From Patescibacteria group bacterium (lineage in GTDB: Bacteria; Patescibacteriota; Minisyncoccia; Phycocordibacterales; JACOZG01), in the NCBI GenBank assembly GCA_038064435.1, contig JBBTTC010000011.1:1-55095 (forward strand): a stretch of 55,095 nt of DNA. Direction: 5' to 3'. Position 1 is the stretch's first letter. Every line of letters begins with the position of its first letter. Shown in pieces: positions 15,557 to 16,288 of the stretch. A program made the position numbers and the translations under genes. The notes beneath the pieces were generated by a model. That model ran no database searches, was not told where the DNA came from, and saw nothing but the letters and a program-made list of their open reading frames with translations.

Positions 15557-15585
15557 TTGAACTACCGTCAAATCGGCGGTATGAT
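15557..15585 (+). promoter_or_regulatory. sigma70 promoter TTGAAC-N17-TATGAT with an inverted repeat (TACCG..CGGTA) in the spacer
   Basis: Read directly. Sits divergent to the wHTH gene. Confidence 0.6.
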
Positions 15586-15592
15586 CTAGGTG

Positions 15593-15746
15593 ACAATTGA
15601 ATAAGTGGTGCCTAAACTCGAGCTTCAGCTTGGGCATGGCATCGAAAGTCAGGTAATGCATAAAAAACCCATCATGGGGTTGCATTACCTGCCATATCGG
15701 GAAACCGGTATGAGTGGCGCAAGCCACTACCCGTGGTGGGCTTTTT
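15593..15746 (+). ncRNA. Candidate structured leader RNA / sRNA
   Basis: Four hairpins including an 11-bp perfect stem, GAAA and GCAA tetraloops, and a terminal stem + U tract. No family recognised. Confidence 0.55.
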
Positions 15747-15748
15747 GT

Positions 15749-16288
15749 ATGGAAAATCTTAAAAATTATCTCAAGTATTATTCTTTAGAAGATTACTTGT
15801 TTAACGAGGTGTCAGCTAATTTTCGAAAGAAAGGTTTCCTTACCACTAAAGAGTTTTTTGCTATTGTCATCTGGAAATCAAATCGTGCCAAGACCAGAGT
15901 TTTAAAAGGGATAAAGAAGAACGGCAAAACCATTAGACAGTTAACAAGCGAGGTCAACAAAGAAAATGACGATAAAAAGAAAGTGGGAATTCTTGAAGCC
16001 ATTCAAGGTATCGGTATTCCAATTGCTTCGGCAATTCTCGCTGTTTGTTATCCTAAGATTTTTACCATCGCAGATTATCGAACAAAAGAAAGTCTTACAA
16101 AGAAGAACAAGGATTTTAAAGGTAAACCAACCACATCCATCTTATCCTATTTAAAATATTCAAAGGCTTGCCATAAGATTGCTGAAGAAGAAGGGCTATC
16201 TTTGAGAGACACTGATCGGGCGCTGTGGGGAGTTGATTTTTACGAAGGTAAAAATGGTTTAAAAGAATTGGTTAAGAACTTAGCATAA
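15749..16288 (+). CDS. HhH-superfamily DNA glycosylase-like protein
   Basis: HhH-like LEAIQGIGIPIASAIL followed by FTIADYR (candidate catalytic Asp), IVIWKS, DRALW. ATG 15749. Confidence 0.6.
   Translation: MENLKNYLKYYSLEDYLFNEVSANFRKKGFLTTKEFFAIVIWKSNRAKTRVLKGIKKNGKTIRQLTSEVNKENDDKKKVGILEAIQGIGIPIASAILAVCYPKIFTIADYRTKESLTKKNKDFKGKPTTSILSYLKYSKACHKIAEEEGLSLRDTDRALWGVDFYEGKNGLKELVKNLA

Follow-up and report, generated by a model that had tools for sequence, protein, structure and literature searches.

What is the structured RNA that stands at the head of a plus-strand cargo operon in a Patescibacteria genome, and does it act on the genes behind it? The question is raised by a window of 55,095 nucleotides (the whole stretch of DNA that was analysed; contig JBBTTC010000011.1) from a Patescibacteria group bacterium whose genome of 589,918 bases is 99.5% complete. 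The RNA lies directly before a start codon at 15749 and belongs to the LOOT family of Rfam. On the basis of the observations below, we hypothesise, with slightly more confidence than doubt, that LOOT is a cis-acting leader with two alternative folds that gates the genes behind it, in a logic like that of the phage P4 CI RNA or the Gifsy-1 IsrK RNA.

A full-length LOOT RNA and its limits

Rfam 15 was searched using Infernal (cmscan). Positions 15609–15728 of the plus strand match RF03000, LOOT, at 94.6 bits (E 6e-17), against a gathering cut-off of 46.4 bits. The alignment spans model positions 1–121 of 121 and is not truncated, and between 15400 and 15900 no Rfam family besides LOOT was found at E up to 1. 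A description made from the letters of the DNA alone (the sequence-only reading) had recognised no known pattern here and considered the RNA novel, naming a strong Rfam hit as the result that would speak against this. Such a hit is what was found, and the window element is a genuine full-length LOOT RNA, a member of a known family. It shows no difference from the modelled part of RF03000, and its host is an uncultivated bacterium with an ultra-small genome, as for the family. All the helices of the model (P1, the outer and inner parts of P3, P4 and P5; Table 1) are present in the window copy, four inner P3 pairs being non-canonical in the cmscan alignment.

Relatives were gathered in two sets. 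The first was drawn from 150 genomes of the same order together with the window's own genome; LOOT occurs in 41 of these 151 genomes, with 51 matches in total, and 49 loci were aligned. The second set comprises 40 independent loci from other orders of the phylum, and LOOT was found in 30 of 151 genomes sampled across the phylum. The 89 copies of the two sets were used together for tallies of loops and U-runs. P1 and P4 pairs show compensatory changes among the relatives, and all 49 P3 regions fold into the Rfam-type hairpin. The predicted fold of 15593–15760 has an energy of –68.4 kcal/mol (z = –5.16), with 1 of 200 shuffles as good. The structured RNA is real and strongly supported.

Much of the sequence-only description was accurate. 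The promoter-like TTGAAC-N17-TATGAT is at 15557–15585, with 9 of 12 matches to consensus, and the 11-bp stem with its inner ACCC/GGGT, the GAAA and GCAA hairpins and the ATG at 15749 are all where they had been placed. Four of the five hairpins described are real. The first of them, written as TGCCTAA/TTGGGCA, had been drawn in the wrong register, since consensus and covariation give UGCC/GGCA around an inner hairpin at 15617–15634. The fifth, a terminator-like CCACTA-cccg-TGGTGG, is present in the sequence, but its conservation is at chance level: among the 49 relatives 40.6% of its cells are paired, compared to 40.7% for shuffled controls, 285 of 500 of which are as good. It was rejected as a conserved feature.

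The model in Rfam ends at 15728 and leaves out two conserved elements, a box on the 5′ side and a covarying tail on the 3′ side. The box consists of near-invariant columns in the 49-sequence alignment, and the transcript probably begins with it. In 24 of the 49 relatives the best-scoring –10 element, often of the extended form TGnTAnnAT, ends 21–27 nt 5′ of the start of P1. Seven loci carry an extra GNRA hairpin inserted between the box and P1, and this stretch is therefore transcribed. Tests of whether the box pairs with downstream sequence or with the body of LOOT showed no advantage of self over non-self partners (p = 0.28 and 0.20). We are inclined to place the natural extent of LOOT at about 15593 to 15748, starting from its own promoter and serving as 5′ leader to the plus-strand cargo operon of the island, a placement which seems to us a little more probable than its contrary.

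Within the model, the most uniform element is the loop of P4, which reads SGAAAS in 89 of 89 copies. The internal loop of P1 occurs in coupled variants, CCUAAA/CAUGG in 44 copies (including that of the window), CCUAAC/UAUGG in 35 and CCUAAG in 2 of the 89. We take this loop to resemble the 11-nt receptor for GAAA tetraloops.

The LOOT motif originates from a survey of 224 motifs (Weinberg et al., 2017; PMC5737381). In the excerpts consulted of later papers it appears in a figure legend (Rfam 14; PMC7779021), in a table (Rfam 15; PMC11701678) and in one sentence on 'cross-covariations' (Rivas, 2020; PMC7657543). Excerpts of the literature searched contained no functional study of LOOT, the supplementary description of the 2017 survey aside; the tail or the gene context may already be part of that description.

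Competing partners for the top of P3

The 19 nucleotides that follow the Rfam model in the window, 15730–15748, pair with 15660–15679, at the top of the long hairpin P3. The conservation of this long-range helix was assessed by the percentage of paired cells, by compensatory changes, by 500 shuffles and by controls in which the strands were slid. With 30 sequences the helix has 17 pairs and is 92.1% paired, 13 of the 17 pairs showing compensatory changes; with 49 sequences it has 16 pairs and is 91.7% paired, with compensatory changes in 12 of the 16. In neither case was any of the 500 shuffles as good. The slid controls are 41–51% paired over the two tests, and 45–51% in the larger one. RNAalifold chooses the helix unprompted. 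Covariation had been proposed in the sequence-only reading as a check on the structure, and the long-range helix joins P1 and P4 in displaying it. That reading had also argued for selection at the RNA level on the plus strand. This is borne out by U-G pairs that are invariant or frequent in the long-range helix, for example in 47 of 49 sequences at one position, and that point to the plus-strand RNA.

Duplex energies give the same signal in both sets. The tail pairs with its own partner at –21.2 kcal/mol and with non-self partners at –11.1 kcal/mol in the first set; the corresponding figures for the 40 loci of the second are –26.2 and –17.0 kcal/mol. The A-run of P3 and the U-run of the tail also covary, AAAGG going with CCUUU and CUGA with UCAA or UUAG, which makes the U-run a part of the helix.

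The same 5′ strand of P3 has a second partner. In the Rfam-type hairpin it forms the local apical helix, and the native halves of this helix are more stable together than chimeric ones (–5.0 against –3.1 kcal/mol). Since the long-range helix covaries and the native apical halves are the more stable, both partners of the P3 5′ strand are under selection. The two arrangements are also close in energy. For window RNA 15593–15775 the unconstrained minimum, which uses the long-range helix, is –68.4 kcal/mol, and the fold with the P3 stem enforced is –67.6 kcal/mol, a difference of 0.8 kcal/mol between the two nested folds; if the tail is kept open, the energy is –62.6 kcal/mol. Compared with a fold that leaves the tail unpaired, the long-range fold is the more stable in 47 of 49 loci, its median advantage being 6.6 kcal/mol.

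The sequence-only reading had proposed mutually exclusive folds of a plus-strand RNA acting on the genes behind it. In spirit this is supported. The pair of folds that it named, the tail against the last hairpin, is not conserved, and the true competing pairing appears from the alignments to be that of the 3′ tail with the apical part of the long hairpin, which is strongly covarying.

The start of the first gene and a proposed gating of the operon

What follows the tail is almost always a gene. In 45 of the 49 loci an ATG-initiated open reading frame (ORF) of at least 50 codons starts on the same strand 0–69 nt past it, a gap which leaves no room for a separate promoter. In the window the gap is absent, ATG 15749 coming directly after the tail; one other locus, L055, is similar, with a gap of 2 nt. 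This start is secure, because homologues of the 179-aa protein, mostly 177–184 aa long, cover 97–99% of the query. The public gene call (P0001, 100% identical) is 204 aa, and its 25 extra codons would, by arithmetic, take it back to an ATG in the apical loop of P3 (15674). Given that homologues are about 179 aa, the public call begins inside an RNA, and the true start is 15749.

Only 2 of 39 long ORFs in the window have a Shine-Dalgarno-like motif (GGAG, GAGG or AGGA) within about 22 nt upstream. Translation in this genome thus seems for the most part to start without pairing of the Shine-Dalgarno kind, and initiation therefore probably needs an unstructured start region. The same count makes it unlikely that the GGUGG in the tail serves as a Shine-Dalgarno site. 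A leader peptide from the UUG of the tail was also considered and finds no support: stops fall near the ATG in 15, 9 and 6 of 48 loci for frames 0, 1 and 2, with no clear frame preference.

In 27 of the 49 loci a copy, at least 8 nt long, of the locus's own P3 5′ strand lies a few nucleotides 5′ of the ATG, compared to 56 of 2352 mismatched pairs. Loci with homologous downstream genes but different P3 sequences also have copies that follow their own P3, and the copy recurs in about 9–11 of the 40 loci of the second set. These downstream strand copies are the strongest evidence for action in cis. Summed helix energies of the two states in the 27 loci (–32.4 and –40.1 kcal/mol), which include no loop penalties, are too crude to count as evidence. 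For a further copy, of the apical strand past the U-run ('X2'), an exact-word test was not significant (5 of 49 loci against 96 of 2352). In a duplex-energy test its excess was only modest (–10.7 kcal/mol, compared to –9.1 kcal/mol; p = 0.0016, with loci that are non-independent); it is clear in a subset of loci and absent in the window (–3.3 kcal/mol). Inside the first gene of the window, GTCAGCTAAT at 15811–15820 matches the P3 5′ strand GTCAGGTAAT at 9 of 10 nucleotides, with an estimated chance of about 0.02. This match may be the remnant of a start-codon copy, or chance.

These copies suggest another function, which is compatible with a two-state leader rather than exclusive of it. LOOT could be a dual-function RNA of the immunity type, the free form ending at the U-run and acting in trans, through the P3 3′ strand and the tail, on read-through transcripts or on an incoming copy of the same element. 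An upstream copy, a complementary strand and a downstream copy are arranged like seqA, CI and seqC of P4 as described in part of PMC4825925. P3 is very variable between elements and each downstream copy tracks its own P3, which would suit a specificity determinant, and the setting is one of recombinase-bearing, phage-like elements. The pairing strands are, however, buried in stable intramolecular helices, the window copy is without downstream target copies, and the genes behind LOOT are accessory cargo and not replication or antirepressor genes. We regard action in trans as a proposal that is unlikely, while the least unlikely of the rival explanations.

Returning to the cis-acting leader, we propose that it works as follows. 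In fold A, the Rfam fold, P3 would be intact with its local apical helix and the tail would be free; the GAAA loop of P4 would be at liberty to contact P1 at its receptor-like loop, and the start region would be open, so that transcription and translation could proceed. An open start region would matter here because Shine-Dalgarno sites are scarcely used in this organism. In fold B, the tail would invade the top of P3 to form the helix of about 19 bp between 15730–15748 and 15660–15679, which would end in UUUUU and abut AUG 15749. The operon could then be turned off by intrinsic-type termination at the U-run, by burial of the start region, or by both. In relatives that have a start-codon copy, the P3 3′ strand freed in fold B could pair with this copy, which would give a switch of the same polarity. 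Candidates for the selector of the fold are folding kinetics, a protein, a ligand or a second RNA.

Several points weigh against this proposal. Pseudoknots and tertiary contacts lie outside the model from which the ViennaRNA energies were obtained, and if P3 and the long-range helix coexisted in a static pseudoknot there would be no switch; we argue, by reasoning only, that they do not coexist, as a linker of 5 nt cannot span a helix of about 17 bp. As for termination, the long-range helix is conserved and the tail contains TTTT in 35 of 49 copies of the first set and in 31 of 40 of the second, but the U-run lies inside the helix and is absent in nine copies (6 of 49, which have no TTT, and 3 of 40). 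It may be only a part of the helix and not of a terminator, and a terminator stem with strands about 60–70 nt apart is unusual. The LOOT of the window has no downstream copies of its own strands, the longest shared word being 5 nt, and our analysis of LOOT identified neither a sensing pocket nor a signal. Finally, LOOT has the Rfam type 'Gene; sRNA'.

This typing, together with the RNA's own predicted promoter and the terminator-like end of most copies, would suit a free-standing, trans-acting small RNA (sRNA) or a component of a ribonucleoprotein, for which the long-range helix and U-run would simply be its own terminator and the position of the ORF incidental. We consider this improbable: ORFs follow the tail too closely in 45 of 49 loci for a promoter to fit between, the copies of the P3 strand at start codons are locus-specific, and no protein except the recombinase consistently co-occurs with LOOT. 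Unlike the Rfam typing, the evidence collected here points to a leader. An RNA partner of the 179-aa protein in particular, as suggested in the sequence-only reading, finds no support: a homologue of this protein stands behind LOOT in none of the 48 other loci, and LOOT is present in none of the 14 loci that encode homologues of the protein.

The compact architecture, capable of tertiary contacts through an invariant GAAA loop and a receptor-like loop, and the competition beside a U-run and a start codon, reminiscent of an expression platform, raise the further question of whether LOOT is a classical riboswitch, an aptamer for a small molecule or ion whose binding picks the fold. In riboswitches such as the adenine add ON-switch, one strand has alternative partners, inside the domain or at the start region, or else forms a terminator. 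LOOT differs from these in having much longer helices, P3 with at least 11 bp being far stronger than typical switching helices, and no coherent regulon. The first downstream ORFs in 29 loci include SNase (three), T5orf172 (two), UDG, trypsin, FemAB, D12 methylase, OB-fold and others, 16 of them having no Pfam family, and 21 of 48 first downstream ORFs have an N-terminal hydrophobic segment. The genes behind LOOT thus range over nucleases, glycosylases, methylases, proteases, membrane proteins and many uncharacterised ones, and a metabolite riboswitch is disfavoured because of this diversity. In addition, the conserved unpaired nucleotides are almost all in the tetraloop and its receptor, with no obvious pocket. 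A riboswitch is in our opinion improbable too, although marginally less so than a free-standing sRNA.

If the leader switch is true, an orphan motif gains a concrete and testable mechanism, the 'sRNA' typing and the model boundaries in Rfam are corrected, and a common regulatory module emerges for the accessory and defence genes on mobile elements of ultra-small bacteria. To our knowledge, almost no gene regulation is known in these bacteria.

Mobile-element setting and comparison with known systems

The window LOOT is located within an island of low GC content, 0.38–0.43 as against 0.51–0.52 in the flanking pheT and leuS genes. The island consists of a divergent minus-strand module and the plus-strand cargo, listed with the parts of the RNA in Table 1.

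Table 1. Positions of the LOOT RNA, its parts and the surrounding genes in the window.
Feature	Position	Strand	Remarks
Promoter-like TTGAAC-N17-TATGAT	15557-15585	+	9/12 consensus matches; -10 ends 23 nt before first LOOT helix
Conserved 5′ box ACAATTGAATA	15593-15603	+	consensus ACAAYTNAATA; near-invariant columns; outside Rfam model
P1	15609-15641	+	UGCC/GGCA (15609-15612 with 15638-15641), internal loop CCUAAA...CAUGG, inner hairpin 15617-15634; from Rfam alignment and covariation
P3 long hairpin	15650-15691	+	outer perfect 11 bp CAGGTAATGCA/TGCATTACCTG (15650-15660 with 15681-15691); A-rich bulge; inner ACCC/GGGT
P3 local apical helix	15667-15670 with 15677-15680	+	Rfam fold
Long-range helix, 5′ strand	15660-15679	+	A-run, apical strand and loop of P3; overlaps local apical helix
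P4 hairpin CATATCGG-GAAA-CCGGTATG	15693-15712	+	GAAA loop 15701-15704
P5 hairpin AGUGGC-GCAA-GCCACU	15713-15728	+	end of Rfam model
3′ tail CCCGUGGUGGGCUUUUUGU	15730-15748	+	long-range helix, 3′ strand; U-run 15742-15746; outside Rfam model; abuts ATG 15749
Large serine recombinase	11941-13407	-	last gene of divergent module; Pfam Resolvase, Recombinase, Zn_ribbon_recom
AAA_25 ATPase	13471-14496	-	divergent module
246-aa gene	14780-15520	-	divergent module; uncharacterised
First gene after LOOT, 179 aa	15749-16288	+	AGOG/8-oxoguanine DNA glycosylase-like; weak hits NF002305, PDB 9o02 (E 0.04)
Rest of cargo	16294-24728	+	Zn-ribbon/trypsin-like protease, receiver-only response regulator, uncharacterised gene, type I HsdM-S fusion, HsdR, second uncharacterised gene, Hypoth_Ymh

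The 179-aa protein may be a glycosylase carried as island cargo; its family, with members of about 180 aa, is widespread, and some of these homologues are named 'thermostable 8-oxoguanine DNA glycosylase' by JGI. Behind it, 16294–17884 encodes a Zn-ribbon and trypsin-like protease and then a stand-alone receiver domain, the catalytic half of the protease matching PADLOC RT-Protease_XI and LmuA. Protease and receiver may form a defence-type pair ahead of the type I restriction genes with their fused HsdM-HsdS.

A head position in a long and mixed operon of a mobile element, directly after the promoter, would also fit a processive antitermination RNA of the put or EAR kind, which modifies its own RNA polymerase to read through heterologous cargo. 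This is very improbable, in that LOOT has no similarity to those families, behind many LOOT units stands a single gene and then a convergent one, and the strand copies at start codons and the tail helix abutting the AUG would have no explanation.

In 30 of the 49 loci a large serine recombinase is encoded divergently, on the opposite strand, no more than 10 kb upstream of LOOT. A ParB-methylase is near LOOT in 28 and a small-terminase-like helix-turn-helix (HTH) protein in 24, and no protein besides the recombinase co-occurs consistently. The frequent adjacency of a large serine recombinase gene raises the possibility of an element acting as DNA, such as a recombination site or a single-strand DNA origin. 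We give this the least credence of all: the helices hold numerous G-U pairs that are invariant or frequent and that would turn into A-C mismatches if the other strand were used, LOOT has GNRA loops and a loop like a receptor, the promoter is at a fixed distance, and LOOT is internal to the island and not at its ends.

The ParB-methylase, the HTH protein and the recombinase form a recurrent backbone, into which LOOT and one gene are inserted as a unit. In some cases the unit stands between the genes for the HTH protein and the recombinase, in others it precedes the methylase. The unit has one layout in loci L033, L036, L041, L049, L050, L071, L075 and L077, and the opposite layout in L037, L044, L063, L066, L069, L070 and L074. 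This arrangement is suggestive of phage-satellite-like islands in Patescibacteria. One viral contig carries LOOT between a module of ParB-methylase, HTH protein and large terminase and a module running from a protease to Ymh. A viral origin as such was rejected, as among the matches listed there is 1 true LOOT in 80 viral-contig loci that fit a loose LOOT pattern. Copies of LOOT in the same genome differ by eye in P3 and apical sequence, with too few identical pairs expected for this to be meaningful.

Some observations concern the minus strand around LOOT in the window. A perfect 13-nt inverted repeat, ATAGCAAAAAACT (15514–15526) and AGTTTTTTGCTAT (15852–15864), brackets the promoter and LOOT module, and there is a minus-strand promoter-like site at 15891–15863; these could reflect antisense transcription across LOOT, or chance. 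Positions 15856–15875 are 75% complementary to the promoter-proximal box at 15585–15604. On the minus strand of 15666–15681 the apical hairpin of P3 and the complement of the A-run score as terminator-like (AACCCCATGATGGGTT and TTTTATGCAT), and this site could stop antisense transcription. A search of 14700–16000 for an antisense copy of the LOOT core in the leader of the recombinase operon yielded only chance-level repeats.

Taking the setting and the leader reading together, a broader picture may be drawn, which we offer tentatively as one that is rather unlikely to be correct. LOOT would be the control RNA of widespread phage- or satellite-like elements of Patescibacteria that integrate by means of serine recombinases. 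It would form a self-contained bistable gate. Its P3 and tail sequences, which are variable and have copies upstream and at the start codon, would be the element-specific address labels, so that each element controls only its own accessory and defence genes in cis, possibly with immunity in trans. It would thus be a counterpart, in the Candidate Phyla Radiation (CPR), of the logic of P4 CI and IsrK, built on an unrelated RNA with tertiary structure.

The likeness to these two systems is one of logic. The Rfam search at E up to 1 yielded LOOT alone, and there is no sequence or structure similarity between it and the P4 CI or C4 family; LOOT is larger than P4 CI, has a tetraloop-receptor type of architecture and is followed by variable cargo genes. 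In P4 immunity, in the part of the source consulted (PMC4825925), the CI RNA brings about premature termination and has complementarity to two sequences, seqA on its upstream side and seqC on its downstream side. LOOT is alike in being a structured RNA in the operon leader of an integrative element, complementary to upstream and downstream copies; the downstream complementary target copy is absent from the LOOT of the window, and present in 27 of the 49 relatives. IsrK, of the Salmonella prophage Gifsy-1, differs in that it activates in trans and needs the Hfq-type biology of enterobacteria, and LOOT shares neither its sequence nor its fold. As outlined in the same part of that source (PMC4825925), one promoter gives rise to a terminated sRNA and to a read-through mRNA with two alternative structures, on which translation depends, and the short form acts on its own read-through mRNA. 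LOOT would resemble it as an RNA of a prophage-like element with its own predicted promoter and a possible terminator, and with alternative structures that involve the RNA's own sequence.

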